Part shown: piece by piece, positions 858-56,609 of the stretch
How positions within the stretch are numbered: position 1 is the first letter of the stretch
How the letters are laid out: each line of letters starts with the position of its first letter
Source: an uncultured Clostridium sp.
GTDB taxonomy: Bacteria; Bacillota; Clostridia; Clostridiales; Clostridiaceae
Assembly (NCBI GenBank): GCA_963524945.1
Contig: CAURJV010000011.1
Location: 28,085-92,084, forward strand
Length of the DNA stretch: 64,000 nt
Direction of reading: 5' to 3'
Made by a program: the position numbers and the translations under genes
The notes under the pieces: generated by a model
The model's input: the letters and a program-made list of their open reading frames with translations, nothing else
Told to the model about the DNA's origin: nothing
The model's database searches: none

Positions 858-3503
858 ATGTCAGAAGAAATAAAAAACATATCAACTACATATGACCCAA
901 AAGAATTTGAAGATAGGATTTATAAAAACTGGGAAGAAAAAGGTTATTTTACACCAGTAATTGATAAAAATAAGAAGCCATATACTATTATAATGCCGCC
1001 GCCAAATATAACTGGGCAGCTACACTTAGGGCATGCATTTGATGATACGCTTCAAGATATGCTTATTAGATTTAAGAGAATGCAAGGTTACTCTACATTA
1101 TGGTTACCTGGAGAAGACCATGCTTCTATTGCAACAGAAGTTAAAGTTGCAAATCAATTAGCAGAACAAGGTTATGATAAGAAAGAAATGGGAAGAGAAG
1201 CATTCCTTGAAAAAGTTTGGGAATGGAGTGACAAATATAGAGCTACAATAAGAAATCAAGTTAAAAAGCTTGGAGTATCTGCAGACTTTACAAGAGAAGC
1301 ATTTACAATGGATGAAAATCTTAGCGCTGCTGTAAAACATGTATTTGTTAAGCTTTATAATGAAGGATTAATATATCAAGGAAATAGAATAACTAATTGG
1401 TGTACACACTGCCAAACAGCATTATCAGATGCAGAAATTGAATATGAAGAACAAGCAGGGCATTTCTGGCATATCAATTACCCATTAGCTGATGGAAGCG
1501 GGTTTATTGAAATAGCAACAACTAGACCTGAAACATTACTTGGAGATAGTGGTGTAGCTGTAAATCCTAATGATGAAAGATATAAACACCTTATAGGCAA
1601 AACTGTAATACTTCCTCTAGTTAACAGGGAAATTCCTATAGTTGGAGATGAATATGTAGATTTAGAATTTGGAACTGGTGCAGTTAAGATGACTCCAGCT
1701 CATGATCCTAACGACTTTGAAGTTGGTAAAAGACATAACTTAGAAATCATAAGAGTAATGGATGATAAGGGAATTATTAATGAAAAAGGTGGCAAATATA
1801 AAGGTCTAGATAGATATGAAGCAAGAAAAGCCATAGTTAAGGATTTAGAAGAAGCAGGTCTTTTAGTTAAGATAAAAGATCACGCTCATAACGTTGGAAC
1901 TCATGATAGATGTGGAACTACAGTAGAACCTATAATCTCAAAACAATGGTATGTTAAGATGGAAAGTCTTGCAAAGCCAGCGGTAGAAGTAGTTAGGAAT
2001 GGCAAAACTAAATTTGTTCCTGAAAGATTTGATAAGATATACTTCAACTGGATGGAAAATATCCAAGACTGGTGTATTTCAAGACAATTATGGTGGGGAC
2101 ATAGAATTCCAGTATACTATTGTCAAGATTGTGGAGAAATGATGGTACTTGAAGATGCTCCAAAGGCATGTACTAAATGTGGAAGCTCTAATATAGAACA
2201 AGATAATGATGTACTTGATACATGGTTCTCTTCAGCATTATGGCCATTCTCAACACTTGGCTGGCCAAACAAAACAGAAGACTTAGAATACTTCTATCCA
2301 ACAAGTACATTAGTTACAGGACATGATATTATCTTCTTCTGGGTTGCAAGAATGATATTCTCAGGACTTCACTGCATGGGAGAAACTCCATTTAATACAG
2401 TTCTTATTCATGGTTTAATTAGAGATTCTCAAGGTAGAAAGATGAGTAAATCTTTAGGAAATGGTGTTGATCCACTAGAAGTAATTGAAACTTATGGTGC
2501 TGATGCCTTAAGATTTATGATAGCTACTGGTAATGCTCCAGGAAATGATATGAGATATTATCCTGAAAGAGTTGAATCATCAAGAAACTTTGCAAATAAG
2601 ATTTGGAATGCTTCAAGATTTGTAATGATGAACCTTGATAAAGAAGTAATGAACAAATATAAAGAATGCAAAGAATATTCTTTAGCTGATAAGTGGATAT
2701 TATCAGAAATGAATACTTTAATAAAAGAAGTAACAGAAAACATGGAAAAATATGAACTTGGAATTGCTATGCAAAAAGTTTATGACTTTATGTGGACTGA
2801 ATTCTGTGATTGGTATATAGAACTTGTTAAACCTGTATTCTATGGAGAAGATGAGAAAGCTAAGGGAATAGTTTACAACGTATTAAATACAGTTTTAATT
2901 ACAGGATTAAAATTATTACACCCAGCTATGCCATTTATAACAGAAGAAATATTCACTCACTTAAGTGATGAGGAAACTATAACAACTTCAGCTTGGCCTG
3001 AATTTGACGAAGCTTTAGTAAATAAAGAAGCAGAAGATGATATGGCATTTGTAATTGAAGCTATAAAAGGTTTAAGAAATGTTAGAGCTGAAATGAACGT
3101 ACCACCTTCAAGAAAGGCAAAAGTAATCTGCTATATAGCTGAGGATGCTAAAAAAGCATTTAACTCAGGTGTAGCATACATTGAAAAGTTAGCGTCTGCA
3201 TCAGAGGTAGAATTTATAAGTGATAAGGCTAATGTTCCTGCAAATGCTGTATCTTTAGTTGTTAAAGGTGGAGAATTATTCATGCCACTACTTGATCTTG
3301 TAGATAAAGATAAGGAATTAGATAGATTAAATAAAGAAGCAAAGAAACTAGAAGGGGAAATTGATAGAATAGATAAAAAGCTAGGAAATCAAGGTTTTGT
3401 TGCTAAAGCACCAGCAACAGTTGTTGACGCTGAAAAAGAAAAGAGAGTTAAGTATGTTGAAATGTTAGAAGCTGTTAAAGTTAGAATTGAAGCTTTAAAA
3501 TAA
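858..3503 (+). CDS. valS: Valine--tRNA ligase
   Basis: [13 protein letters not shown] (HIGH), [18 protein letters not shown]-terminal coiled coil; start moved to 858 for GGAGG spacing. Confidence 0.98.
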
Positions 3504-3520
3504 TTTTAATGAAATTCAGT

Positions 3521-3570
3521 AAAAGATATTACTAAGTTCCTTGGAGCTTGGTAATATCTTTTTATTTTTT
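3521..3570 (+). terminator. Intrinsic terminator after valS
   Basis: AAAAGATATTACTAAGTTCC-tt-GGAGCTTGGTAATATCTTTT stem followed by T-run. Confidence 0.85.
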
Positions 3571-3768
3571 AAAGGTTTTACTCTGAAAGATAAGCGTGCT
3601 ATTAGAGCATATAAACAAACATGCAATAAATTATTAGCATCATAATAATTTCAATTATTGTATAGTTAGTAAGATAAAAAAGTTAAAAATTTTTGCAAGG
3701 TAAGGATATAATAGAAGGATTATTAATATATATAATTCTAGAATAATATATATGGAGGCGTTTGAATT

Positions 3769-4620
3769 TTGAAAACGAGAAGGCATTTACTTAACTTAAT
3801 TTTTTGGATATCCTTATCAATCTTATTTAATATTATTATATATTACACAAGAGGTGAAACATCAGCAATAGAATATTTTGGGGGTTACATAGTAGAAATG
3901 TCGTTAAGTCTAGATAATTTGTTTTTATTTCTAATGATATTTTCGAGCTTTAGAATACAAGAAGAATATCAGGAAAGGATACTTTTATATGGCGTTATAG
4001 GAGCTATGGTGCTAAGGCTGATTTTCATTTTACTTGGCGTAGCTATGGTAAATAAATTTAGTTTTATATTATCTATATTTGGAGTATTATTGCTACTTAG
4101 TGGTATAAAAATATTTCTTAGGGAAGATGATAATATTCAATTTCATGATAACTTTGCAGTCAAAATTTTAAGAAGGATAATGCCTATAACAAATGTTTTG
4201 CATGGGAATAAATTTTTTGTTAGGAAGAATAAGGTTATTTATGCTACACCACTTTTTATAGTGCTTTTAATAATAGAATTCTCAGATATTATTTTTGCAA
4301 TAGATTCAATACCGGCTATTTTTTCAATAACAACGGATACTTTCATAGTTTATACCTCTAATATTTTTGCAATTTTAGGACTTAGAAGTATGTATTATAT
4401 ATTAGAAAAAATGAATAATATGTTTAAGTTTATGAAATATGGAGTGGGATGTATATTAATTTTTACGGGAATAAAGCTAGTAATATTATTTTGGAAAATT
4501 GAAATTTCAGTTACCAATTCTGTATTAATTATATTGTCTATTTTATTGGCTAGTATACTAATATCGCTATTATGGAGTGAATTTGATAAGTTTAGAAATT
4601 GGTGCAAAAAACGATCATAA
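3769..4620 (+). CDS. TerC/Alx family membrane protein
   Basis: EMSLSLDNLFLF, DIIFAIDSIPA, YTSNIFAILGLRS motifs; TTG start with GGAGG. Confidence 0.9.
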   Translation: MKTRRHLLNLIFWISLSILFNIIIYYTRGETSAIEYFGGYIVEMSLSLDNLFLFLMIFSSFRIQEEYQERILLYGVIGAMVLRLIFILLGVAMVNKFSFILSIFGVLLLLSGIKIFLREDDNIQFHDNFAVKILRRIMPITNVLHGNKFFVRKNKVIYATPLFIVLLIIEFSDIIFAIDSIPAIFSITTDTFIVYTSNIFAILGLRSMYYILEKMNNMFKFMKYGVGCILIFTGIKLVILFWKIEISVTNSVLIILSILLASILISLLWSEFDKFRNWCKKRS

Positions 4621-4816
4621 TTATTTTTAATTCTACTAATTTTAAAAGGAGTACAATTGTTTTTCTGAATAATTATGAAACAAAATTATTGCAAGGATTT
4701 TTTTGTTTAGCTTTTAATTAGTCATTTCACTACAATTAAGATATAATGTAAAGTAAATACATATTATTTAGAATTTGCATTTATAGAAAAACATAAAAGA
4801 CAAAGAGGTAAGAAAA

Positions 4817-6130
4817 ATGAGCATGACTTATAAAGACGCAATGGATTATATTACAAGTGTGGGGAAGTTTGGATCTAATTATGGACTTGAAAGAACTTTT
4901 AGAATTTTAGAGTTACTCGGAAATCCCCATGAAAAACTCAAGCTTATTCATATTGCAGGAACTAACGGCAAGGGATCAACTACAGCTATGATATCAAAAA
5001 TGTTAATTGGAATGGGATATAAAGTAGGAATGTATACATCCCCATATTTAGAAGAATTTGAAGAAAGAATTCAAATAAATGGGATTAATATTAGCAAAAA
5101 ATCCTTAGTAGATTTAGTGGAAGAAATTAAACTAGTAGTTAATAAAGTAATTGAAGAAGGATATGAGCATCCTACTGAGTTTGAAATTATAACTGCTTTA
5201 ATGTTCTTATATTTCTATAGAGAGAAAATAGATTATGGAGTAATTGAGGTGGGCCTTGGTGGAAGACTAGATTCAACCAATGTATTAACACCTAAGGTTA
5301 GTGTAATAACTTCAGTAAGTTTAGATCATATAAATATATTAGGGGATAATTTAAAAGACATAGCAAAAGAAAAAGCCGGAATCATCAAAGAAAATATACC
5401 AGTTGTACTCTATCCTCAAAAAAAAGAGGCAGAAGAAGTAATATTAAAGATAGCGGAAGAAAAAAATTCAAAAGTATATTTTGTGAATAAGGAAAATGGA
5501 AAGTTAGTTGATATTAACTATGATGATTTTTATCAAAATGTAGTTGTTAAAAGTATCAGAAATATATATAAAGTTAAATTTCCTCTGCTTGGAGAACATC
5601 AAATATTAAATTTGGGAGTTGCTTTAAGTGCAATAGAGGTATTATGCGAGAATGAAAAAATAGAATTAGATACAAGCTTAATTGAGAAAGCATTACAAGA
5701 AGTTGTATGGATGGGAAGACTCGAGGTCTTAAAAAAGAAACCTACCATAGTAATTGATGGGGCTCATAATATAGATGGAATTAAAGCCCTTAGAAAGAAT
5801 ATAGAGAAATATTTTAAATATAATAAATTGTACTTATTACTTGGCATTTTAGCAGATAAGCAAGTAAAAGAAATGGTACAAGAAATAACTCCATTAGCTG
5901 AAAAAGTTTATGCACTTACACCACATAGTGAAAGAGCTGAACTTAGTGAAAATTTAAAAGAAGAAATCTTAAACTACAATTCAAATACTATTGCATTAGA
6001 AAGTTATGAGGATGCTTTTTCTTTAGCATTAAAAGAAGCTAAGGAAGAAGATTTAATTGTAGTTAGCGGATCATTATACATGATTGGGGATATGAGAAAA
6101 ATTATAAGAAAGAAATTTCCTCATAAGTAG
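4817..6130 (+). CDS. folC: Folylpolyglutamate synthase/dihydrofolate synthase
   Basis: HIAGTNGKGST, EVGLGGRLDSTN, IDGAHN, SGSLY. Confidence 0.95.
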   Translation: MSMTYKDAMDYITSVGKFGSNYGLERTFRILELLGNPHEKLKLIHIAGTNGKGSTTAMISKMLIGMGYKVGMYTSPYLEEFEERIQINGINISKKSLVDLVEEIKLVVNKVIEEGYEHPTEFEIITALMFLYFYREKIDYGVIEVGLGGRLDSTNVLTPKVSVITSVSLDHINILGDNLKDIAKEKAGIIKENIPVVLYPQKKEAEEVILKIAEEKNSKVYFVNKENGKLVDINYDDFYQNVVVKSIRNIYKVKFPLLGEHQILNLGVALSAIEVLCENEKIELDTSLIEKALQEVVWMGRLEVLKKKPTIVIDGAHNIDGIKALRKNIEKYFKYNKLYLLLGILADKQVKEMVQEITPLAEKVYALTPHSERAELSENLKEEILNYNSNTIALESYEDAFSLALKEAKEEDLIVVSGSLYMIGDMRKIIRKKFPHK

Positions 6131-44959: not shown

Positions 44960-46135
44960 TTATTTTTTTTGAGAGTATTGCTTAGAATTATAATTAGTAT
45001 CTTCCAAAACTCCGCCAAAAACCTTCTTTTCTTCAAATTTTATACTAAATTCTCTCTCATATTTTTTTATTATATTAAGCTGTTGAACAGTTAAAATACA
45101 TATAGAAGTACCATGAGCGTTTCCTCTAGCAGTTCTTCCAGATCTATGGAGATATTCATTTAATTTTAATGGTAAATCTAAATGGAATACATGAGTTATA
45201 TCCGCAACATCAAGACCACGAGCTGTAACATCTGATGAGACTAGTATTTTTATTTTACCTGCTCTAAAGCTTTCAATTGCGAGTTTTCTATCTTCCTTAG
45301 AAATCTTTCCGGTCATAGCAAAACAATCTTTGCTATGATAATTAAGTTTGGCTGTTGTTAATTCAATATCCTCATTGTTATTGACAAAGATGATTGCTTT
45401 TTCTGGTTTCGCAGCCACAAGAACTTTTCTTAAGGTTTCAAACTTATCACGTCTTTCACATAAGATAAACATATGCTCAATATTAGGATTTATTAAAGGC
45501 TTATCTTCACTTTTTATTATTATTGGTTCCTTCATTAGAGACTTCGCAGTTTCTAATGTTTCAGGTTTTATAGATGCTGAAAATAGCATAAGCTGTCTAT
45601 CCCTCATTGTTGATTTAACAATGTCTTTAGTAACATTAGATCTCTTCGGATCTAATAAATTATCTCCTTCATCAATTATTATTGTTTTTATAGTATGGGC
45701 AGTTATTTTTTTCTTTCGAATTAAATCTAGAATTCTACCTGTTGAACCAACAATTATATGAGGTTTTATTTCTTTAAGTTTTTTTATTTGATTATTTATA
45801 TTAACGTCACCAATAATAGATAGTGAAGTTATAGGAAATGATGAGTTCTCAGCAAGAAGCTTAATTTGATCTTCTATTTGTTTAGCAAGTTCATGTGTTG
45901 GAGCCAATATTAATCCTTGCATTTCTCTCTTTGATGTATCTACTTTATGAAAAAGAGGCAATAGATAAGCTAATGTTTTACCGCTTCCTGTAAAGGCTTC
46001 ACCAATTATATCTTTGCCCTCAAGAGCAGGTAAAATAGAAGAGGATTGAATTGAAGTTGGTATATTAATTCCTTGTTTTTGTAGCCCTTCTATTATACTT
46101 GAATTTAAATTTAAATCACTAAATGAGTTAATCAT
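44960..46135 (-). CDS. DEAD-box-family RNA helicase (DEGD variant)
   Basis: TGSGKT, PTHEL, DEGD, SAS, ARGLD, HRSGRTAR. Confidence 0.92.
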   Translation of the reverse strand: MINSFSDLNLNSSIIEGLQKQGINIPTSIQSSSILPALEGKDIIGEAFTGSGKTLAYLLPLFHKVDTSKREMQGLILAPTHELAKQIEDQIKLLAENSSFPITSLSIIGDVNINNQIKKLKEIKPHIIVGSTGRILDLIRKKKITAHTIKTIIIDEGDNLLDPKRSNVTKDIVKSTMRDRQLMLFSASIKPETLETAKSLMKEPIIIKSEDKPLINPNIEHMFILCERRDKFETLRKVLVAAKPEKAIIFVNNNEDIELTTAKLNYHSKDCFAMTGKISKEDRKLAIESFRAGKIKILVSSDVTARGLDVADITHVFHLDLPLKLNEYLHRSGRTARGNAHGTSICILTVQQLNIIKKYEREFSIKFEEKKVFGGVLEDTNYNSKQYSQKK

Positions 46136-46450
46136 TAATTTCTCCTTTTATAGTTGAATAATTTTTTTGATATATTGCTAATTAATTATATCCTTATTAT
46201 GTGCATTTTTCTAGTTAAAGTTACATAATCCCACAGATATATTATCTGATATAGAATGATTATATATTTATGTAAAAAAACTACTCTCTAAATTAAAATT
46301 TAGATTTAAAGTATAAATTGCATTAAAACAATGAGAAAATAAACAAACAAATAGTGTTTGAAAAATAGATAAGAATGGTATAATAAGAAAGATTTATATA
46401 ATTTCTGATTAATATAATTTAATAAAATAATTGAGGTGAAAATTTAATAT

Positions 46451-47893
46451 ATGAATAATGAATTCACTAAATTTAAAATAAGTGATGAAATACTAAAATC
46501 AATCGAGGGACTTGGTTATAAAAATCCATCAAAAGTTCAAGAAAAAGTTATCCCAGAGATACTTTTGAATAAAGATATCATAGTTAAATCACAAACGGGA
46601 AGTGGAAAGACGGCAGCTTTTGGGATTCCTTTATGTGAGAAAGTGGATTGGAATGAAAATATCCCACAAATTTTAGTATTAACACCTACGAGAGAACTCG
46701 CTGTTCAAGTAAGTGAAGATATAACTAATATAGGAAGGTTTAAAAGAATAAAATCTGTTTCGATTTTTGGTAAAGAACCTATCTCAGAACAGGAGAGAAA
46801 ATTGAAACAGAAGACACACGTAGTGGTTGGAACTCCAGGGAGAATTCTAGATCATATAGATAGAGGAAGCCTTGATGTAACTCAAATTAAATATTTTGTT
46901 ATAGATGAGGCTGATGAAATGCTTAATATGGGATTTATAGGGCAAGTTGAAGGAATTATTAGAAGACTTCCAAAGAAAAAAGTTACTATGTTATTTTCAG
47001 CAACAATACCAGAGGAAATAAAGGTATTGTGTGATAAATATCTGAATAAGCCTGTAGATATAAGCATTGATAATCAAAGACTTATTAACGAAAATATAGA
47101 TCATAATTTATATTATACTAATTATGAAGATAAGATAGAAAAACTAAATGATATTTTAATAACTGAGAAACCTGAAACAGTAGTTATATTTGCAAAAACT
47201 AAAGAGAATGTAGATAAAGTGTTTCAATGGTTAAAATCTAAGGGGTACTCGGTAAATAGAATACATGGAGGAATGCTTCAAAAAGAAAGATTAAGCATTA
47301 TGGATGGCTTTAGATCGGGTGATTTTAGAATACTTGTGTCCACAGATCTAGCTTCAAGAGGAATCGATGTTAAAGGAATTACTCATGTAATAAATTATGA
47401 TCTTCCAGTAGAGAAGGAAGCATATGTACATAGAATAGGGCGAACAGGAAGAGCAGGGGAAAAAGGGAAGGCAATAAGCTTCTGTGTTAATGAAAAAGAT
47501 AAGCTTTTAAGTGAAATTGAAGAGTTTATTGGATTCAAAATTCCCGTTTATAATTTGCCTGAGAAAAAAACAGTTGAAATGGAAAAAGACGAAGGAGTTA
47601 AAACACTTAGAAGTAAACCTAAAAGAAAAGAAGAAAAATCAAAATCTATAAATAACAATATAACAAAAATTTATTTAAATGGAGGTAAAAAAAAGAAGAT
47701 CCGTGCCGGAGATATAGTTGGTGCTATTTGTAAAATAGATGGTATTAAATCTGAAGATATTGGAATCATAGATGTTCAAGATTCAGTATCATATGTTGAT
47801 ATATTAAATGGAAAAGGAAAACGAGTTATAGATGAATTAAAAAATATAACTATAAAAGGTAAAATTATTAAAGCTGAAAAAGCAAAAAAGTAA
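46451..47893 (+). CDS. dbpA: DEAD-box RNA helicase with DbpA-type RNA-binding domain
   Basis: TGSGKT, PTREL, DEAD, SAT, HRIGRTGR, C-terminal GGKKKKIRAGDIVGA. Confidence 0.88.
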   Translation: MNNEFTKFKISDEILKSIEGLGYKNPSKVQEKVIPEILLNKDIIVKSQTGSGKTAAFGIPLCEKVDWNENIPQILVLTPTRELAVQVSEDITNIGRFKRIKSVSIFGKEPISEQERKLKQKTHVVVGTPGRILDHIDRGSLDVTQIKYFVIDEADEMLNMGFIGQVEGIIRRLPKKKVTMLFSATIPEEIKVLCDKYLNKPVDISIDNQRLINENIDHNLYYTNYEDKIEKLNDILITEKPETVVIFAKTKENVDKVFQWLKSKGYSVNRIHGGMLQKERLSIMDGFRSGDFRILVSTDLASRGIDVKGITHVINYDLPVEKEAYVHRIGRTGRAGEKGKAISFCVNEKDKLLSEIEEFIGFKIPVYNLPEKKTVEMEKDEGVKTLRSKPKRKEEKSKSINNNITKIYLNGGKKKKIRAGDIVGAICKIDGIKSEDIGIIDVQDSVSYVDILNGKGKRVIDELKNITIKGKIIKAEKAKK

Positions 47894-48207
47894 GTATGTT
47901 AATATAAAATTTTAAAGGATGTTAACATAAATAATATTAAGTGGTATTATAGATATTGAATAGATGATCTTATTAAATATAGGAAGTAGCCACTATATTA
48001 ATGCAAATCTTTTTACTTTATAAAATGGTATGTAACAGATTATTTTAAGGAAGTTAAGTTTAAAACATCAAAATTTTGACAAAGAATAGAATATAGATGA
48101 GCATTTAAATTAGTTTAGGTGTATTATATATATAGCTGAATATCTGATGACAAAAAACTAAAATATTAGTAAGAGATAATATATTATAAAGAGGTGTTAT
48201 AAAAATA

Positions 48208-49077
48208 ATGATTTTAGATAGAAATGAAAAATGTTGGTGTGGTAGTGGTTTGAAATACAAAAAATGTCATTTAGAATTTGATGAGAAAATTGAAAGTTTT
48301 AAAAGAAAAGGTCATATAGTCCCACCAAGAAATATTATAAAAAGCTCAAAGGATATCGAAGGAATCAAAAGAAGTGCTAAAATTAATGATGGAGTTTTAG
48401 ACTTAGTTGCAAGTAAAATTAGAGCAGGAATGAGCACAGCGGATATAGATAAATTAGTATATGATTATACTATAGAACATGGAGCAATCCCAGCACCATT
48501 GAACTTTGAAGGCTTTCCAAAGAGTGTTTGTACATCAATAAATAATGAAGTATGCCATGGAATCCCGGACGAAAATATTATAGTCAAAGATGGAGATATT
48601 ATAAATGTAGATGTTTCTACGATTTTGGATGGATATTATTCGGATGCGTCTAGAATGTTTATGATTGGCAATGTTAGCGAAGAAGCTAAAAGATTAGTAG
48701 AAGTAGCCAGAGAATGTATGGTAAAAGGAATTGAAGCTATAAAACCTTGGGGATTCTTAGGAGATATAGGAGCAGCATGTCAGGAACATGCTCATAAAAA
48801 CGGATATACAATAGTAAGAGCATTAGGTGGACATGGAATAGGTAATGAATTTCATGAAGATCCATTTGTTCCTCATATAGGGGAGAAAGGAACTGGAATG
48901 TTGCTTGTTCCTGGAATGATTCTTACAGTGGAACCAATGGTTAATCAAGGAACTTATGATGTTTTTGTCGATGAAGAAAATGAATGGACTATTTATACAG
49001 CCGATGATAAATTATCAGCTCAGTGGGAGCATACAGTGTTAATAACTGAGACTGGAATAGAAATTTTAGCTAAGTAA
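48208..49077 (+). CDS. map: Methionine aminopeptidase type I with N-terminal SEC-C motif
   Basis: RNEKCWCGSGLKYKKCH; CHGIP, DASR, GHGIG..FHE, EPM, SAQWEHT. Confidence 0.95.
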   Translation: MILDRNEKCWCGSGLKYKKCHLEFDEKIESFKRKGHIVPPRNIIKSSKDIEGIKRSAKINDGVLDLVASKIRAGMSTADIDKLVYDYTIEHGAIPAPLNFEGFPKSVCTSINNEVCHGIPDENIIVKDGDIINVDVSTILDGYYSDASRMFMIGNVSEEAKRLVEVARECMVKGIEAIKPWGFLGDIGAACQEHAHKNGYTIVRALGGHGIGNEFHEDPFVPHIGEKGTGMLLVPGMILTVEPMVNQGTYDVFVDEENEWTIYTADDKLSAQWEHTVLITETGIEILAK

Positions 49078-49160
49078 TATATAAGGTAGTTAAAAGTGGT
49101 TTTTAAATCAATTTTGGCTACCTTGTTTAATGGAAGTATTAATCTAAGGAGTATTATTAA

Positions 49161-51611
49161 ATGGATAATGTAGCTTTAAATTATTTGGAGAAATATTATG
49201 GATATAAGTCATTTAGAAAAGGGCAAGAAGACATAATAAGCAAAATAATAAATGGAGAAGATGTACTTGCTATAATGCCAACTGGAGGAGGAAAGTCAAT
49301 TTGCTATCAGATACCAGCACTGATGCTAGAAGGAATAACAATAGTAATTTCTCCTCTAATATCCCTAATGAAAGATCAAGTAGATACGTTAAAAGATATG
49401 GGGATTGAAGGTGCTTTAATAAATAGTACACTGAGTGCCATAGAAGAAAAAGAAGTAATAAACAATCTGGAAAATAGTCAAATAAAGATTCTTTATATAG
49501 CGCCTGAAAGATTAGAATCTTTTGAGTTTTTGAGTGTTATTTCTAAATGTAATATTTCTCAAATAGCTGTAGATGAAGCTCATTGTATTTCTCAATGGGG
49601 ACATGATTTTAGGGGAAGTTATAGAAAAATAGCACATTTCATAAGTTTACTTCAAGAGAGGCCTATAATAACAGCATTTACTGCAACTGCATCACAGGAA
49701 GTAAGAGAAGATATAGTAGATCTTCTTAAACTGAATAATCCAAGAGTCTTTATAACAGGTTTTGATAGAGAAAATTTATTTATAAGCGTGATTAAAAGTG
49801 GTAACAAAAAAGAATATTTATATAAATACATAGAAAATAATAAAGAAGTTTCAGGTATTATATATGCTGCAACTAGGAAAGAAGTCAATAATTTATATGA
49901 ATCTTTGCAAGCGAAAGGGTATAATGTGACTTGCTATCATGCGGGATTATCTGAAAATACTAGAAAAGAAAATCAAGAAAATTTTATATATGATAGAGCT
50001 GATATTATGATAGCTACCAATGCTTTTGGAATGGGGATAGACAAACCTAATATAAGATATGTTGTACACTATAATATGCCAAGAAATATTGAAAGTTACT
50101 ATCAAGAGATTGGAAGAGCAGGAAGAGATGGAGAAAAGAGCGAATGCGTATTATTATTTTCGCCTCAAGATGTTCAGGTCCAAAAGTATTTAATAGAAAA
50201 TTCAATAGAAGATGTAGAAAGAAAGAACAATCAATATAGAAAGCTTCAACAAATGATGGATTTTGTATATAGCAATTATTGTTATAGAAAATACGTCTTG
50301 GAGTATTTTGGAGAAACATACAATGGGCAATGTGATAATTGCAGTAATTGTTTGAGCGAAGGAGAATTTGTTGATAAGACGATAGAAGCACAAAAAGTTC
50401 TTTCATGTATATATAGAATGAAAGTTAAATTCGGAATTGGAATGCTTGTAGATGTACTTAGAGGGTCTAAAAATAAAAAAGTTATTCAATTCAATTTTAA
50501 TGAGCTGTCCACTTATGGATTAATGAAAGAATATTCAGCAGAAGATCTCAAAAACTTTATTAATACATTAATTTCTCATGGATATATTAATGTGGTTGAA
50601 GGTACATATCCAGTGTTGAGTTTAAATGATAGATCAAGAAGAGTACTAACATCTCAAGAAAAAGTTCAATTAAAAGAGTTTAGAGTAGAAAAGAAAGCTA
50701 GTGAGGATAATGAACTTTTTGAAATACTTAGAAATTTAAGGCAAGAACTAGCAAAGAAAAACAATGTTCCGCCATATATAATATTCGGCGACGTTACATT
50801 AAAAGAAATGGCTGTAAATTATCCAATATCAAAATATGAAATGCTTAAAATTTCTGGAGTTGGAGAAGTTAAATATAATAAATACGGAAAAGTATTTGAA
50901 GATGTAATACGGAATTTTGTAGAAGAACATGAAATTGAGATACCTGATCATGATGAAGTTTTATTAGGGGAACAAAAGAGTATAAATAAAGATGAAGAGT
51001 CTAGATTAGAAGTTAAAACAGACTTAGAATTATACGAGAGATTAGACAATGCAAGAAAAGAATTCGCTAAAAAAGAAAGAACTTTACCACAAGCAATACT
51101 GACAATGAATACTATAAAGGAAATAAGCGGAAGATGCCCAAGTACTTTAGATGAATTAAAAGATATAACAGGCATGGGACCTAAAAAAATAAGCTCGTAT
51201 GGAGAAAAGATAATAAATATAGTAAACGAATATTTGTCAGAAAATGATAGAAAAGTAGAGTGGATCGAAAGAAAAAGAAGAAAGGTTATAATTGATGGAG
51301 AGACTAGAGAGAATGATCAAATTTCAATAGATATGCTTAAGCAGAATACAGATGTACATGAAGTATCTCAAAAATTAGAAGTCTCAATTTCAACAATCCT
51401 AGGATATTTAACAGAGTATATAAAAGAGTTTGGAGAAAATATATTCCATGTAAATTTAGAAGAGTTTTATAATGAAGAAGATGAAAAGCTAATAATAGAT
51501 GTATGTCAAAAGTATGGATATGATAAGATAAATGTATTAAAAAAAGAATTGCCTTCGCATATAAAATATGAAAGCATAAGAGCTGTAATTTTAAAGCGGT
51601 ACTACTTGTAG
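49161..51611 (+). CDS. recQ: DNA helicase RecQ
   Basis: PTGGGKS, DEAHCISQWGHDFR, QEIGRAGRDG, CDNC, RQC, two HRDC-like segments. Confidence 0.96.
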   Translation: MDNVALNYLEKYYGYKSFRKGQEDIISKIINGEDVLAIMPTGGGKSICYQIPALMLEGITIVISPLISLMKDQVDTLKDMGIEGALINSTLSAIEEKEVINNLENSQIKILYIAPERLESFEFLSVISKCNISQIAVDEAHCISQWGHDFRGSYRKIAHFISLLQERPIITAFTATASQEVREDIVDLLKLNNPRVFITGFDRENLFISVIKSGNKKEYLYKYIENNKEVSGIIYAATRKEVNNLYESLQAKGYNVTCYHAGLSENTRKENQENFIYDRADIMIATNAFGMGIDKPNIRYVVHYNMPRNIESYYQEIGRAGRDGEKSECVLLFSPQDVQVQKYLIENSIEDVERKNNQYRKLQQMMDFVYSNYCYRKYVLEYFGETYNGQCDNCSNCLSEGEFVDKTIEAQKVLSCIYRMKVKFGIGMLVDVLRGSKNKKVIQFNFNELSTYGLMKEYSAEDLKNFINTLISHGYINVVEGTYPVLSLNDRSRRVLTSQEKVQLKEFRVEKKASEDNELFEILRNLRQELAKKNNVPPYIIFGDVTLKEMAVNYPISKYEMLKISGVGEVKYNKYGKVFEDVIRNFVEEHEIEIPDHDEVLLGEQKSINKDEESRLEVKTDLELYERLDNARKEFAKKERTLPQAILTMNTIKEISGRCPSTLDELKDITGMGPKKISSYGEKIINIVNEYLSENDRKVEWIERKRRKVIIDGETRENDQISIDMLKQNTDVHEVSQKLEVSISTILGYLTEYIKEFGENIFHVNLEEFYNEEDEKLIIDVCQKYGYDKINVLKKELPSHIKYESIRAVILKRYYL

Positions 51612-51732
51612 TGAACTAATAAAATCTATTAGGTTATTTTGGACCAAATTAAGTACATCTAAGAATATTACTAATTTCTATTAAATATATTTAATAGTGG
51701 AATAGAAGATAGAGTAAAGAGGTGTAATTAAA

Positions 51733-52236
51733 TTGGATCCATACGAGGTTTTAGGTGTTGAAAAAACAGCTTCTGAAGAAGAAATAAAAAATAAATTTAA
51801 AAATATTTTGGAAGAATATACACAAAATCAAAATGAAACTACAAAACAAAAAGTTTTAGCTCTTAGTGCGGCATATGAGCTTATTATTAATGGCAATCTA
51901 TATAAAGAAATTCGTGATTTAGTCGATAATAAAAACTTTTCTGAGGCTGAAGCAAAATTGAACTTAATAAATAATGCGAATTCAGCAGAATGGAATTATC
52001 TTCAAGGTTTTATATCTGTTCAAAAGGGGTGGTTTGACAGTGGGCTTAATTACTTGAAAAAAGCTGTAGAATTAGATCCTAATAACCATGAATATTTGGA
52101 CAGCTTAAACAAATTGCAATCAAGAGTTATTGACTATATGAAAAAGTATGCAGATAAAAATGTGAAACCCAATTCTAATAATATGAATGCTTGTGGTGGA
52201 GATAATAATAGTGGTAGTAACGGGGGAATGTGTTAG
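51733..52236 (+). CDS. Degenerate J-domain + TPR protein
   Basis: DPYEVLGV..AS.EEIK start without HPD; AEWNYLQG..AVELDPNN TPR. Confidence 0.78.
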   Translation: MDPYEVLGVEKTASEEEIKNKFKNILEEYTQNQNETTKQKVLALSAAYELIINGNLYKEIRDLVDNKNFSEAEAKLNLINNANSAEWNYLQGFISVQKGWFDSGLNYLKKAVELDPNNHEYLDSLNKLQSRVIDYMKKYADKNVKPNSNNMNACGGDNNSGSNGGMC

Positions 52237-52394
52237 TAAGTATATTCTAATTTGAATTTAACATATATAAGTCCTAAGAAAGATTATTCATCAAACTTTA
52301 ATTTCTATCTAATAGTAATGGCGCTTGCAGTGATGCTAATATTTATGAATTTTATTAAATAGAACTTATATATAAATAAATTTTATTATTTGGG

Positions 52395-52423
52395 TTGAAG
52401 TTTTTAAATATTTATGTTATTCT
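52395..52423 (+). promoter_or_regulatory. Sigma-A-like promoter for the candidate sRNA
   Basis: TTGAAG-N17-TATTCT with extended TG at 52415-52416. Confidence 0.65.
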
Positions 52424-52428
52424 AAATA

Positions 52429-52497
52429 AGCAGTTGGTACGTAAAGTGCTAATGTGGAGCTTAGAGTGTCCTTCGCCGGTCTCTAAGCTCCTTTTTT
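52429..52497 (+). ncRNA. Candidate small regulatory RNA upstream of sigI
   Basis: Promoter, 5' hairpin 52433-52453, terminator GGAGCTTAGAG/CTCTAAGCTCC + T6 with a 14-nt GC-rich loop. Confidence 0.6.
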
Positions 52498-52818
52498 GTG
52501 TTTAAATAGAATATGAAATTAAATTTTTGAGGTAATAAAGTGAATATATATAGTACCGTTTACTGAACTAATAAAAAACTACTATGAAATATATTGTTAA
52601 GAGAAAAAAGTTCTATAAATATATTTTTCAATTAACAACGTTAAAAATAAATTTAATACATGATATAATAGTAAGTATCAGTTTAGATTTTACACAAGTA
52701 TTTTTATGGAATGTTAAATTAAGCCTAGAAATTAAAGTTTTACATTTGTTTAATAAAAAGTACCAAAACTTATAAATTTTTTTGTATATAATAATGACCG
52801 GAGAAGGGAGCGTATGTC

Positions 52819-53484
52819 ATGCTCGAATGTGTTTTAATAGATTTAAATGTTGATAAGAACACAAGTATAAATGAACTTATTGAAAATCATATGCCTTTTA
52901 TAATAAAAAGTATTTCAGATGTGACAGGTCGCTATGTATCTTGCGAAAATGATGAAGAACTTAGTGTGGGATTACTTGGTTTTCATGAGGCAATTGAAAG
53001 ATATGATAACGAGAAGGGACATTTTTTATCTTTTGCAAAATTGGTAATTGGAAGTAGAATAAAGAATTACTTAAAAGGTGAAAATAAGCATAATCATTCA
53101 TCTTTGGACGAATTAGTGGACAAAGGTTTGGATTTTAGAGATGAATATTTTGAGCCTAAAGAAGATAATAGTGTGTTGCTAGAAGAGATAACTACTTTAA
53201 AGAATGAAATAAGTTCGTTTGGTTTTACTTTGGAAGATTTGGTGAATGAAGCTCCCAAACAACAGGCAACGAGAAAGAATGCAATTAATTTATCAGAAGA
53301 AATATCAAAGGATGAAGAATTTTTATCTTTTATGTATTTGAAGAAGAGATTGCCAATCAAAAAGATTGTTCTAAAGTTCTCAGTTACAGAAAAGGTAATA
53401 AAAAGAAGTAAAAAATTTATAATTTCTGTTGTAATAATAATTGACAAGAATCTCAGTGCTTTAAAAAATTGGATCAGGAAGTAG
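52819..53484 (+). CDS. sigI: RNA polymerase sigma-I factor
   Basis: ENDEELSVGLLGFHEAIERY..KGHFLSFA, DLVNEAPK, KRLP.K, IKRSKKFII; followed by rsgI-like gene. Confidence 0.88.
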   Translation: MLECVLIDLNVDKNTSINELIENHMPFIIKSISDVTGRYVSCENDEELSVGLLGFHEAIERYDNEKGHFLSFAKLVIGSRIKNYLKGENKHNHSSLDELVDKGLDFRDEYFEPKEDNSVLLEEITTLKNEISSFGFTLEDLVNEAPKQQATRKNAINLSEEISKDEEFLSFMYLKKRLPIKKIVLKFSVTEKVIKRSKKFIISVVIIIDKNLSALKNWIRK

Positions 53485-53493
53485 GTGAAAAGA

Positions 53494-54624
53494 ATGAATA
53501 GGGGAATAATAATGGAAATTAAAAAAAGTTATGCTATAGCTTTAAATGATAATGGCATAATGGAAAAAATTGCACCTAAGAAAGACATGAAAATGGGGCA
53601 AAAAATATTTTATTTTGAAGATGATGTCATTAAGGCTAGTCATGGTGGGACTTATAGGTATAATAACTTTATTAAGTCAATTGGAGCAATTGCAGCGTTG
53701 TTTTTAATAGTATTCACCTTCTTTCATACTATGAAATCTGATACAGCGTATGCAGTTGTTAGTTTAGATATTAATCCTAGTATACAAATAGAAGCTGATA
53801 GTAAATTGAAGATTATTAGTGTTGAAGGTGTAAACAATGATGGAAAGAATATAGATTTTACTGATGTTAAAGGTATATCTCTTGATGAAGGAGTACAAAA
53901 AATAAAAGAAAAACTTATAGAAAAAAAATATTTAGATACTAATAGGGAAGTATTGGTTGGATTTGCATTTATAAAGAATGAAGATAACAGTTCTTATGAG
54001 AAAGATATAAAGGACGTTATTCAATCTACTTTTAATACAGAAAAAGTCACTTATGTTAAAGGTGATAAGGATGATGTTGATGAAGCCAAGACAAAAGGAA
54101 TAAGTTTAGGAAGATATGAAGCATCTCTAGTGGTAGATGAGAATACAAAGAATAAAATAGACGTAGCACCAGTAAAAGAAATTACTGCAAGCATAAAAGA
54201 TAAAGATAATGTAACTCAGTGGGATGCAAAAGACGAAAAAAATAATGATGTCGTTACTCCGGCTACTAATTCAAATTCAGATTCAAAACCTGAAAAAACA
54301 ACTGTAGATAAGCCTGTAATAAATGGAGCAGCTGACAATTCATTACCTAATGTGGACTCGGGGAAAGCTACAGATAACCCTAAAAAAGAACAAAAGGATG
54401 ATGGTGTGTTAAATTTACAACCAGAAGTTCCCGCACAAAATGATAATAAGGGAAATCTGCCTGTGACAAGTCCAGGAAAAGACGATAATACCATTAATAT
54501 AGGACCGAGTAATGGCACTATCGTTAATAATCCTACATCAGGAAAAATTCCGGAAGATCCGAATAAAACCATAGAGGTACCAAAAACTGAAGAAAATACG
54601 GTTAATAAGGCTGTTAAAAATTAA
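53494..54624 (+). CDS. rsgI: Anti-sigma-I factor RsgI-like
   Basis: N-terminal GIIMEIKK..GQKI domain, single TM, YAVVSLDINPSI, GISLGRY, low-complexity tail. Confidence 0.88.
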   Translation: MNRGIIMEIKKSYAIALNDNGIMEKIAPKKDMKMGQKIFYFEDDVIKASHGGTYRYNNFIKSIGAIAALFLIVFTFFHTMKSDTAYAVVSLDINPSIQIEADSKLKIISVEGVNNDGKNIDFTDVKGISLDEGVQKIKEKLIEKKYLDTNREVLVGFAFIKNEDNSSYEKDIKDVIQSTFNTEKVTYVKGDKDDVDEAKTKGISLGRYEASLVVDENTKNKIDVAPVKEITASIKDKDNVTQWDAKDEKNNDVVTPATNSNSDSKPEKTTVDKPVINGAADNSLPNVDSGKATDNPKKEQKDDGVLNLQPEVPAQNDNKGNLPVTSPGKDDNTINIGPSNGTIVNNPTSGKIPEDPNKTIEVPKTEENTVNKAVKN

Positions 54625-54635
54625 TGAGTTACTTA

Positions 54636-54684
54636 AAAGTAGATTTATCTAGATGCATAGCATGGAAGATAGATCTACTTTTTT
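54636..54684 (+). terminator. Terminator after rsgI
   Basis: AAAAGTAGATTTATCT ... AGATAGATCTACTTTT + T-run. Confidence 0.75.
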
Positions 54685-54827
54685 AGTTTACTATATATTT
54701 TATACTTATATGATTAGTTACAAGAGTAAAATGCAATAGAAAAATCATATTAAAAAGAGGACTAGAATAAAAAATTATAGTATACTTACTAGTAAGTATT
54801 ATTAATAAGGATTTGGGGAGATTAAAA

Positions 54828-56609
54828 ATGATAAAAGAATTATTAAAAAATAATATACTGATATGCGATGGAGCAATGGGAACATATTATTCAGAAGTAA
54901 CAGGCAATGATGTATCTTATTGCGAATTTGGTAACTTAAATGATAAGGAAACTATAAAAAGAATACATAAAGAGTATATTGAAGCGGGGGCTAAACTAAT
55001 TAGAACAAATACTTTTTCGGCTAATACATATGATCTTGGAGTATCGTTAGAAACATTAAAGGATATAATTAAATCAGGAATAAACTTAGCTAAAGAAGTA
55101 ACAAGAAATACGCCTGTTTTAATAGGTGCAAGTATTGGACCTATTAAAACAGATAATTTAGATGAATTTAGCAATGAGGTTTTAGAAGAATATAGATACA
55201 TAGTAGATTGTTTTTTAGAAAATGGAGTAGATATTTTTATATTTGAAACTTTCAGCAATTACAATTATTTGAAAAAAATAAGTGAATATATTAAAGGCAA
55301 GAATATAAATAGTTTCATACTTACTCAGTTTGCCGTTAAGCCAGATGGGTTCACAAGGGATGGGTTAAGTTCAGCTAAATTGATTAAAGAAGTGCGAAAT
55401 ATTAAATATATAGATGCGTTTGGGTTTAACTGTGGGTCAGGTCCATCACATATACTAGAAATTATTAAAAAAGTTAATATAGAAAATGAAATTGTTTCAG
55501 CACTACCTAACGCAGGTTATCCAGAGATAATTCATGAAAGAACAGTTTATCCAAATAATCCGTTATATTTTGCAAAAAAAGTTAATGATATAAGGTCTTT
55601 TGGAGTTTCTATTGTAGGGGGATGTTGTGGAACAAACCCAAACTATATTAAACAACTAACAAAGATAGTTAATGAAAATTCTAAAATAGTTAATGCTAAC
55701 ATTAAAGCTGAAGAAAAGGTTAAAAGTTTTGAGAAAAAGGCTAATAATACTTTTAAAGATAAGCTTGAGAATGGTGAATTTGTTGTAGCTATAGAGTTAT
55801 CAGCACCAATTGATACAGATATATCAAAAATTATAGATGGAGCCAAGATATGTAAAGAAAATAATATTGATTTAGTAACAGTTCCTGACTCGCCAATGTC
55901 TAAGGTTAGAGCTGATTCTGCCATTATATCATCTAAAATTAAGAGGGAAATAGGAATCGAAGCTATGCCTCATATTTGTTGTAGAGATAAGAATACTAAT
56001 GCTATAAGATCAAGCTTAATAGGATCTCATATTGAAAATATAAGAAATATCCTTGCAATTACTGGTGATCCTATATCTGATGCTAGTAAAGTTGAAACAA
56101 AAAGCGTATTTAACTTAAATTCATTTAGGTTAATGGAATTGATAGAAAGCATGAATGAAGAAGTATTCAAAGAAGATAGCATTTATATAGGCGGCGCTTT
56201 GAATTTGAATGTTTTAAATAAAGAAATAGAATATAATAGAATGATGAAGAAGATAGAAAAAGGTGCAAAATTTTTTTTGACGCAACCTATCTATGATGAT
56301 AATGCTATAGAGTTCTTGAAAATGATTAAAGAAAGAACCAATGTGAAAATTTTGGCAGGATTACTTCCAGTTGTAAGTTATAGGAACGCAATGTTCTTAA
56401 ACAATGAACTTCCAGGGGTAACTATACCAGATAAGTATGTAAAATTGTTTTCGGAAAATATGAGCAAGGAAGAGGCTCAAGCAATTGGTGTAAGCATTAC
56501 TGTGGAGATCGGAAAGAAACTTAAAAATATTGCTGATGGGTTATATTTTATAACTCCATTTAATAGAGTTAATATGTTAATTGAAATTATTAAGCAAATT
56601 AATGCCTAA
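54828..56609 (+). CDS. yitJ: Bifunctional homocysteine S-methyltransferase/methylenetetrahydrofolate reductase
   Basis: DGAMGT, TNTF, FETF, GFNC, PNAG.P, GGCCGT; C-terminal MTHFR (H.CCRD.N, ITGDP, TQPIYD). Confidence 0.9.
   Translation: MIKELLKNNILICDGAMGTYYSEVTGNDVSYCEFGNLNDKETIKRIHKEYIEAGAKLIRTNTFSANTYDLGVSLETLKDIIKSGINLAKEVTRNTPVLIGASIGPIKTDNLDEFSNEVLEEYRYIVDCFLENGVDIFIFETFSNYNYLKKISEYIKGKNINSFILTQFAVKPDGFTRDGLSSAKLIKEVRNIKYIDAFGFNCGSGPSHILEIIKKVNIENEIVSALPNAGYPEIIHERTVYPNNPLYFAKKVNDIRSFGVSIVGGCCGTNPNYIKQLTKIVNENSKIVNANIKAEEKVKSFEKKANNTFKDKLENGEFVVAIELSAPIDTDISKIIDGAKICKENNIDLVTVPDSPMSKVRADSAIISSKIKREIGIEAMPHICCRDKNTNAIRSSLIGSHIENIRNILAITGDPISDASKVETKSVFNLNSFRLMELIESMNEEVFKEDSIYIGGALNLNVLNKEIEYNRMMKKIEKGAKFFLTQPIYDDNAIEFLKMIKERTNVKILAGLLPVVSYRNAMFLNNELPGVTIPDKYVKLFSENMSKEEAQAIGVSITVEIGKKLKNIADGLYFITPFNRVNMLIEIIKQINA

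Follow-up and report, generated by a model that had tools for sequence, protein, structure and literature searches.

The window analysed here, a stretch of 64,000 nucleotides from an uncultured Clostridium sp., carries between a J-domain/TPR gene and the sigma factor gene sigI a compact unit made up of a candidate promoter, a 5' hairpin and an intrinsic terminator. The features of this locus are as follows.

51733..52236, + strand: J-domain/TPR gene (Pfam DnaJ and a weak TPR match), upstream of the small RNA element
52395..52423, + strand: candidate sigma-A-type promoter (TTG-nnn -35 element, 17 nt, extended -10 element TG-n-TATTCT)
52429..52497, + strand: predicted small RNA, about 69 nt here and up to about 80 nt in relatives; start placed from the promoter spacing
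52430..52455, + strand: 5' hairpin P1 (core 52434-52440 with 52446-52452), rich in G-U pairs, nearly invariant in sequence, with a variable loop
52456..52497, + strand: intrinsic terminator, 11-bp stem and U-run
52470..52479, + strand: apical CC-UUCGCC-GG, a 2-bp stem with a conserved hexaloop; candidate seed
52760..52792, + strand: putative sigI promoter region, conserved in an alignment of 30 sigI leaders
52796..52808, + strand: proposed target site from duplex computation (the extended Shine-Dalgarno sequence is 52802-52810)
52805..52807, + strand: pile-up of left fragment ends of the sigI mRNA in RNA-seq of a close relative, inside the target site
52808..52824, + strand: predicted cis hairpin GAGC/GCUC, covering the end of the Shine-Dalgarno sequence and the sigI start codon
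52819..53484, + strand: sigI (NCBIfam NF006170, 337.6 bits against a cut-off of 271)
53497..54624, + strand: rsgI, anti-sigma factor (Pfam RsgI_N and RsgI_M)

The identities of sigI and rsgI proposed in the preliminary description are upheld, the former by the NCBIfam cut-off that it passes and the latter by its Pfam domains, and the window SigI is 99.5% identical to the SigI of records L093 (C. beijerinckii) and L046. Just upstream, at 44960-51611, two DEAD-box helicases (one DbpA-like) and recQ are clustered along with an ORF that we take to be methionine aminopeptidase-like; after rsgI lies a long inverted repeat (54632-54687), probably a bidirectional terminator, with a weak mir-368 match on both strands. 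In many relatives (L261-L267, L428-L431) a Snf2-type helicase gene of about 1000 aa separates the RNA site from sigI, and the same gene is absent from the window between 52236 and 52819. The tight adjacency of the RNA and sigI in the window thus reflects the loss of this gene here or its insertion elsewhere.

The positions originally given for the promoter, hairpin, 11-bp terminator and loop all match the sequence. The promoter comprises TTGAAG (52395-52400), a 17-nt spacer, TG (52415-16) and TATTCT (52418-52423), and scores 8 of 12 consensus positions, under the cut of the promoter scan. It is followed by the 5' hairpin (52430-52455), the terminator stem (52456-52466 with 52481-52491), a 14-nt loop (52467-52480) and the U-run (52492-52497). 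The unit as a whole (52429-52497) folds with a minimum free energy of -28.5 kcal/mol (z -5.4), and none of 200 shuffles is equally stable. The loop had been described as unusually large and GC-rich: it does span 14 nt between the arms of the stem, but it is not open, as a CC/GG or CU/GG stem closes it to the hexaloop UUCGCC. Across 41 aligned rows the first of these apical closing pairs is C-G in 41/41, while the second is C-G in 22 and U-G in 19. The suggested comparison with Rfam was run with the covariance models of Rfam 15, and the element belongs to no Rfam family at E<=5; three weak matches lie elsewhere in 50000-56000.

Conservation, covariation and genomic context

The unit is conserved, its structure covaries and it occurs independently of gene context. 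A covariance model of the element (R1), run on 129 genomes of the genus, matches 92 of them (91 strongly and one cut by a contig end) once one junk match of 93 is set aside. Among 146 genomes that represent the rest of the family, 10 match strongly, and these span six genera. In a class-wide sample of 151 genomes the only strong matches fell in two genomes of the genus itself, next to three weak ones, and the phage and plasmid collections gave no match. A DNA search over 40 scored relatives likewise recovered the RNA part in 14 other genomes of the genus, in unrelated gene contexts. A pattern scan of genome contigs returned at least 120 stretches, with 41 among the matches listed carrying the full unit; the 30 titled stretches among the matches listed are all Clostridium or Clostridiaceae, including C. 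perfringens. In genome G000 the element is single-copy at the BLAST level.

The promoter elements TTG, TG and TA..T are invariant in all 15 aligned genomes, whereas the flanks diverge. In the terminator stem, 10 of 10 pairs show changes on both sides across 41 distinct rows, giving a covariation score of 0.306 against 0.164 in shuffled alignments; none of 500 shuffles reaches the score, and slid controls stay at or below 0.146. The loop core and the 5' block, on the other hand, are fixed across the same 41 rows while the stem covaries. For the 5' block this invariance is partly by construction, since alignment A2 owes 26 of its 41 rows to a pattern that fixes it, although the 15 rows found by BLAST independently show a fixed block. 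The P1 helix also draws support from variants in three genomes (G063, G070 and G081), which exchange G-U for Watson-Crick pairs or the reverse and so keep or strengthen the pairing. Fixed loop and 5' block sequences together with a covarying stem form the pattern of a sequence that is read by another molecule.

The neighbours of the element vary, and at 20 of 45 loci the next ORF is encoded on the other strand (by mechanical ORF calls of at least 60 aa, duplicate loci included), so the element cannot generally act in cis. Having its own promoter and intrinsic terminator, containing no ORF and being independent of its neighbours, it has the make-up of a trans-acting sRNA; features of a riboswitch or attenuator are lacking in that the downstream gene is not constant and no competing antiterminator is found. 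It is dispensable, since at least five sigI-bearing relatives lack it. Among individual genomes, G131 has lost the RNA, G142 keeps the promoter and stem only and G022 has an N-gap at the site. Thus, the proposal that the promoter, hairpin and terminator form a small RNA gene is strengthened by the genus-wide conservation and the covarying stem, with a discrete transcript as the likely product, and from these sequence comparisons the unit is most likely a conserved small regulatory RNA gene common to most Clostridium species.

Transcription at the locus and the proposed pairing with the sigI leader

Transcription could be followed in three unstranded RNA-seq runs from one study of a close relative of the window organism, in which bins of zero depth mark places where the sequenced organism has diverged in sequence. 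Termination occurs at the hairpin in this relative. The depth upstream falls from about 150-270 (52398-52428) to 1-3 beyond 52491, right fragment ends lie at 52431, and 9 and 23 reads cross 52496 in two of the runs. The J/TPR mRNA enters the element and appears to stop at the terminator, and given this collapse across 52431-52497 the hairpin also serves as the end of that mRNA. There is no separate small-RNA peak in these 151-nt paired unstranded libraries, which exclude RNAs of about 70 nt. Farther on, 52801-52831 is the site of a 17- to 52-fold step, in which the depth per direction climbs from about 90-120 to values of 1600-4900, and the left ends of sigI fragments pile up at 52805-52807. 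This gives sigI a short leader of its own, whose true start is somewhat upstream of this pile-up. The preliminary description had also allowed for long-range pairing within a read-through leader, a version disfavoured by the few reads that cross the terminator, which make any read-through leader a minor one, and by the sigI ends at 52805-52807. Over 52801-53050 the runs of the relative show a very abundant sigI mRNA, with a depth in each direction of up to about 11,800. A second sigma-A-like site upstream of sigI (52641-52669) matches 10 of 12 consensus positions with an extended -10 element, and the RNA depth behind it is very low.

A short-leader sigI mRNA is consistent with the putative promoter conserved in 30 leaders. 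This region (52760-52792) contains GTACC.AAA, 13-14 nt, TGTA and an overlapping TATAAT-like hexamer. It resembles the sigma-I promoter consensus AAA-N13/14-CGWA, as given in the accessible text of PMC4711584, but has T for C (TGTA against CGWA). The combination of a sigma-I-like TGTA element with a TATAAT-like hexamer suggests, at the level of sequence, that sigI may be autoregulated or under dual control. The GAGC/GCUC hairpin at 52808-52824 is predicted in all 28 folded leaders of the 30 and might possibly act as a translational damper or thermometer, apart from the sRNA. An upstream in-frame ATG was considered as the cause of leader conservation and set aside, since only 7 of the 28 leaders have it in frame.

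The central proposal had been that the terminator loop pairs with the ribosome-binding site of sigI, adding a third layer of control beside RsgI. The pairing itself is as described: of the 13 positions at which 52469-52481 faces 52796-52808, 12 pair (one of them as G-U) and one is a G/A mismatch, and the duplex (-21.3) overlaps the Shine-Dalgarno sequence and stops 10 nt before the sigI ATG (52819). The sRNA would, in this reading, pair in trans with the short sigI leader, cover the Shine-Dalgarno sequence and repress translation, the target having been gained in the nearest species group. Several observations speak for it: among 5088 start regions sigI has the best raw duplex energy, and it adjoins the RNA gene; 15 of the 30 leaders, with SigI identity as low as 80%, give a computed duplex of -20 kcal/mol or better; and the RNA-sigI spacing stays at 0.2-4 kb throughout that group. 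Moreover, the commonest leader substitution (A/G) falls at the unpaired position, and with the start codon inside the conserved hairpin the target would be a free entry site.

The match was held hard to attribute to chance. Its adjacency to the RNA is indeed unusual, but its strength is ordinary, since 12 shuffled loops find best duplexes of -20.3 to -26.1. Seven of the 13 target bases are Shine-Dalgarno sequence, which complements 9 nt of the 16S 3' end seen in L293, and the mismatch opposes the near-invariant G of the hexaloop. When accessibility is included, sigI drops to rank 50 among the 400 best raw matches, and the computed duplex depends on the start site, being -17.3 for a start at 52797 but only -11.5 for one at 52800.

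The comparative evidence also speaks against sigI as a conserved target. The gene is present in 48 of 124 genomes of the genus, and 51 of the 92 carriers of the RNA lack it at E<=1e-15. Among the 23 carriers with a SigI at least 68% identical, 13 keep the site, 5 weaken it and 5 lose it (genomes G017 and G020 were left out of the scoring), and four more distant carriers reach only -6.5 to -7.6. Compensation is found nowhere, the loop being unchanged wherever it was fully inspected (G096, G056, G070, G085, G145, G140, G009 and G016). Conversely, G135 retains an intact site, yet the RNA is absent genome-wide and a plain terminator stands at its syntenic position, and synteny persists without pairing in G016 (at 6 kb) and G009 (at 16 kb). 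The expected co-conservation of loop and target thus breaks down in all but one lineage, and within that lineage the two do not covary. This makes a lineage-limited repressor of sigI unlikely; judged from the sequences, the neat match looks like a lineage-limited coincidence made up mostly of Shine-Dalgarno complementarity and a few bases gained, and the scanning of many windows would tend to select just such an adjacency. If the link were true, it would provide RNA-level control of a sigma-I factor, which we did not find in the literature searched, and a clean case of the gain of a neighbouring gene as target. In genome G020 (L164, L159) sigI is seemingly split in two pieces and the RNA is still present.

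Candidate targets, related systems and interpretation

Three other candidates in G000 looked as good as sigI, namely rsmE, spo0A and accC. The two-site match to rsmE fails in 28 of 30 loci, being limited to G000 and one near-identical genome. The 12-bp match of spo0A to the 5' block (rank 2) reaches -14 kcal/mol or better in 9 of the 83 carriers and in 4 of the 27 genomes without the RNA, with mean duplexes of -10.2 and -9.9, respectively (110 of 118 spo0A-positive genomes compared). For accC, a gene of fatty-acid synthesis, a perfect 11-nt site for the 5' block lies in the first codons in 27 of the 75 carriers and in 2 of the 20 genomes without the RNA, by a hand count among the matches listed (106 of 113 rows) in which kin are not independent and second carboxylase copies are ignored. 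The site is absent from one whole large clade, and accC stands as a weak lead, as codon bias and kinship may account for it. A start-codon pattern search revealed, among the matches listed from four genomes, no recurring target besides accC. Hence among sigI, rsmE, spo0A (not conserved) and accC (partial) there is no conserved target, the whole-genome search having covered one genome. The best matches in a single genome, such as sigI, rsmE and spo0A, can seem convincing yet fail on comparison.

Other partners were also considered. The best duplexes with 16S rRNA, of about -18 kcal/mol, were treated as chance. The CIRCE operator is an inverted repeat with a fixed 13-nt spacer between 7-nt arms; the element fits its right arm but has a spacer of 4-7 nt and G-U-type changes in the left arm, and a true CIRCE lies elsewhere in G000 (C155). 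Mimicry of the tRNA D and T loops was rejected on mismatches of spacing and variants.

The element has very probably been listed before. Table S1 of PMC3025663 (Chen et al. 2011) places sCbei_2113 on the + strand between Cbei_1825 (DnaJ-domain) and sigI (Cbei_1826) in C. beijerinckii NCIMB 8052, so that the correspondence is by flanking genes, not by sequence. That entry, as it stands in the table, is a 188-nt interval with a SigF promoter call, without sequence, structure or target; it is absent from the candidates tested in Table S2, and none of six supplements of the paper gave a sequence match to the element. The same source places sCLL_A2435 between matching DnaJ-domain and Snf2 genes in another species. 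No study of the element was found beyond this untested 2011 prediction in a mostly open-access literature taken without the motif supplements of PMC8632094 and PMC11109978. The accessible portions of PMC6429828 and PMC3879012 hold nothing on it, and the preprint 10.1101/2024.02.27.582317 mentions Cbei_1826 once in its accessible part.

A parallel might be struck with the RsaE/RoxS-type sRNAs (as covered by the available text of PMC2790875), with which the element shares a 5' hairpin, an exposed C-rich motif, a 3' terminator and an anti-Shine-Dalgarno logic. Unlike them it is shorter, has its motif in the terminator loop, has no Rfam match and lacks an unpaired UCCC, the loop being UUCGCC with a UUCCC variant in 1 of 41 rows. 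SpoY and SpoX of C. difficile (excerpts of PMC10267692) are likewise clostridial sRNAs acting on the mRNA of a transcription regulator; compared by description, the 5' block of the element pairs over 12 nt with early spo0A here, but the site is not conserved. By the available description in 10.1101/663880, sr8384 of C. acetobutylicum is likewise a small clostridial ncRNA and has a homologue in C. beijerinckii, but it is 94 nt long and overlaps the CAC2383 ORF; it is stated there to be absent from the 2011 list, on which the window element apparently appears. The element is thus a conserved, uncharacterised clostridial sRNA family, and the alignment and model amount to a new RNA family definition.

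The reading we consider probable is that of a stand-alone, trans-acting base-pairing sRNA whose C-rich apical loop addresses G-rich ribosome-binding regions. The sigma-A promoter would yield an RNA of about 70-80 nt with the 5' hairpin and the terminator, the tip of which would present the conserved loop UUCGCC in the context UCC/UUUCGCC. This loop would nucleate pairing on ribosome-binding sites of the GGUGAA(G/A)G type and thereby block 30S binding; the G-U-rich 5' hairpin would protect the 5' end or act as a second, masked seed, and at this locus the hairpin of the element would double as the end of the J/TPR mRNA. The separate transcript, the base pairing and the repression are inferred. 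The loop variants G to A (G087b, G059b) and C/U would retain pairing with a GGUGAAG-type site, though the C/U variation fits the cis CC/GG stem equally well, and the exposed loop of just 6 nt counts against a loop seed.

Alternatively, the element might be a protein-binding or structural RNA, a sponge or scaffold in which a protein would contact the 5' helix and the UUCGCC hexaloop, neither of them serving as a seed. P1 keeps a fixed sequence despite being paired, with 5 of its 6 pairs invariant, and such variants as occur make the helix stronger, the opening of nt 1-12 is computed to cost 8.4 kcal/mol, and four target hypotheses have failed or are partial. The absence of an Rfam match and the anti-Shine-Dalgarno character of the C-rich loop argue against it, we know of no protein-binding motif in the RNA, and real targets could have been missed by a search of one whole genome; altogether we regard this as improbable.

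A cis role, as the terminator of the upstream gene, as a leaky leader attenuator of a downstream helicase gene or as both, appears very unlikely. It would accommodate the end of the J/TPR transcript in the relative and the helicase neighbours: a CshA-like DEAD-box gene is directly next at 12 of the 68 unique loci (at 8 of these about 20-30 nt past the stem, without space for a promoter), a Snf2-type helicase follows at 7 retrieved loci, and degenerate second copies sit before the same CshA-like gene. Against this stand the opposite-strand neighbours in 20 of 45 loci, a CshA-like orthologue in G000 without such a leader, and the want of a competing antiterminator, the best terminator-free fold being 16-22 kcal/mol worse in all six cases tested. 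A plain terminator, moreover, would need no conserved loop and no conserved promoter of its own, and G142, with promoter and stem kept but loop and P1 lost, shows the look of a mere terminator. Highly doubtful, finally, is a family-wide two-seed riboregulator whose loop would, in the window lineage, repress sigI as a third layer beside RsgI while its 5' block pairs with accC in the service of envelope homeostasis.

About 70% of the genus retains the candidate sRNA, with solvent producers as well as gut and pathogenic species among the named records, and to our knowledge few sRNAs have been characterised in Clostridium proper. With its fixed loop and 5' block, short length and own promoter, and being open to deletion in C. 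beijerinckii, it offers an entry point into clostridial sRNA biology.

Several genomes carry further copies. Degenerate second copies (L274, L275 and L276 in G087, G094 and G059; also L008, L009 and L219) keep the promoter and stem, have the loop UUCACC or an otherwise altered one and lie directly before the CshA-like DEAD-box gene, in some genomes about 1.2 kb from the main copy. Genome G416 has three strong copies (L413, L426, L427; L054, L088), one of them with the variant loop UUCGCG upstream of a DEAD-box gene. A rebuilt 5' hairpin, or the loop motif or 5' block alone, is seen in L279 and L280 (G021, G024), L424 (G361), L434 (G353) and L289 (G149), which are possible distant homologues.
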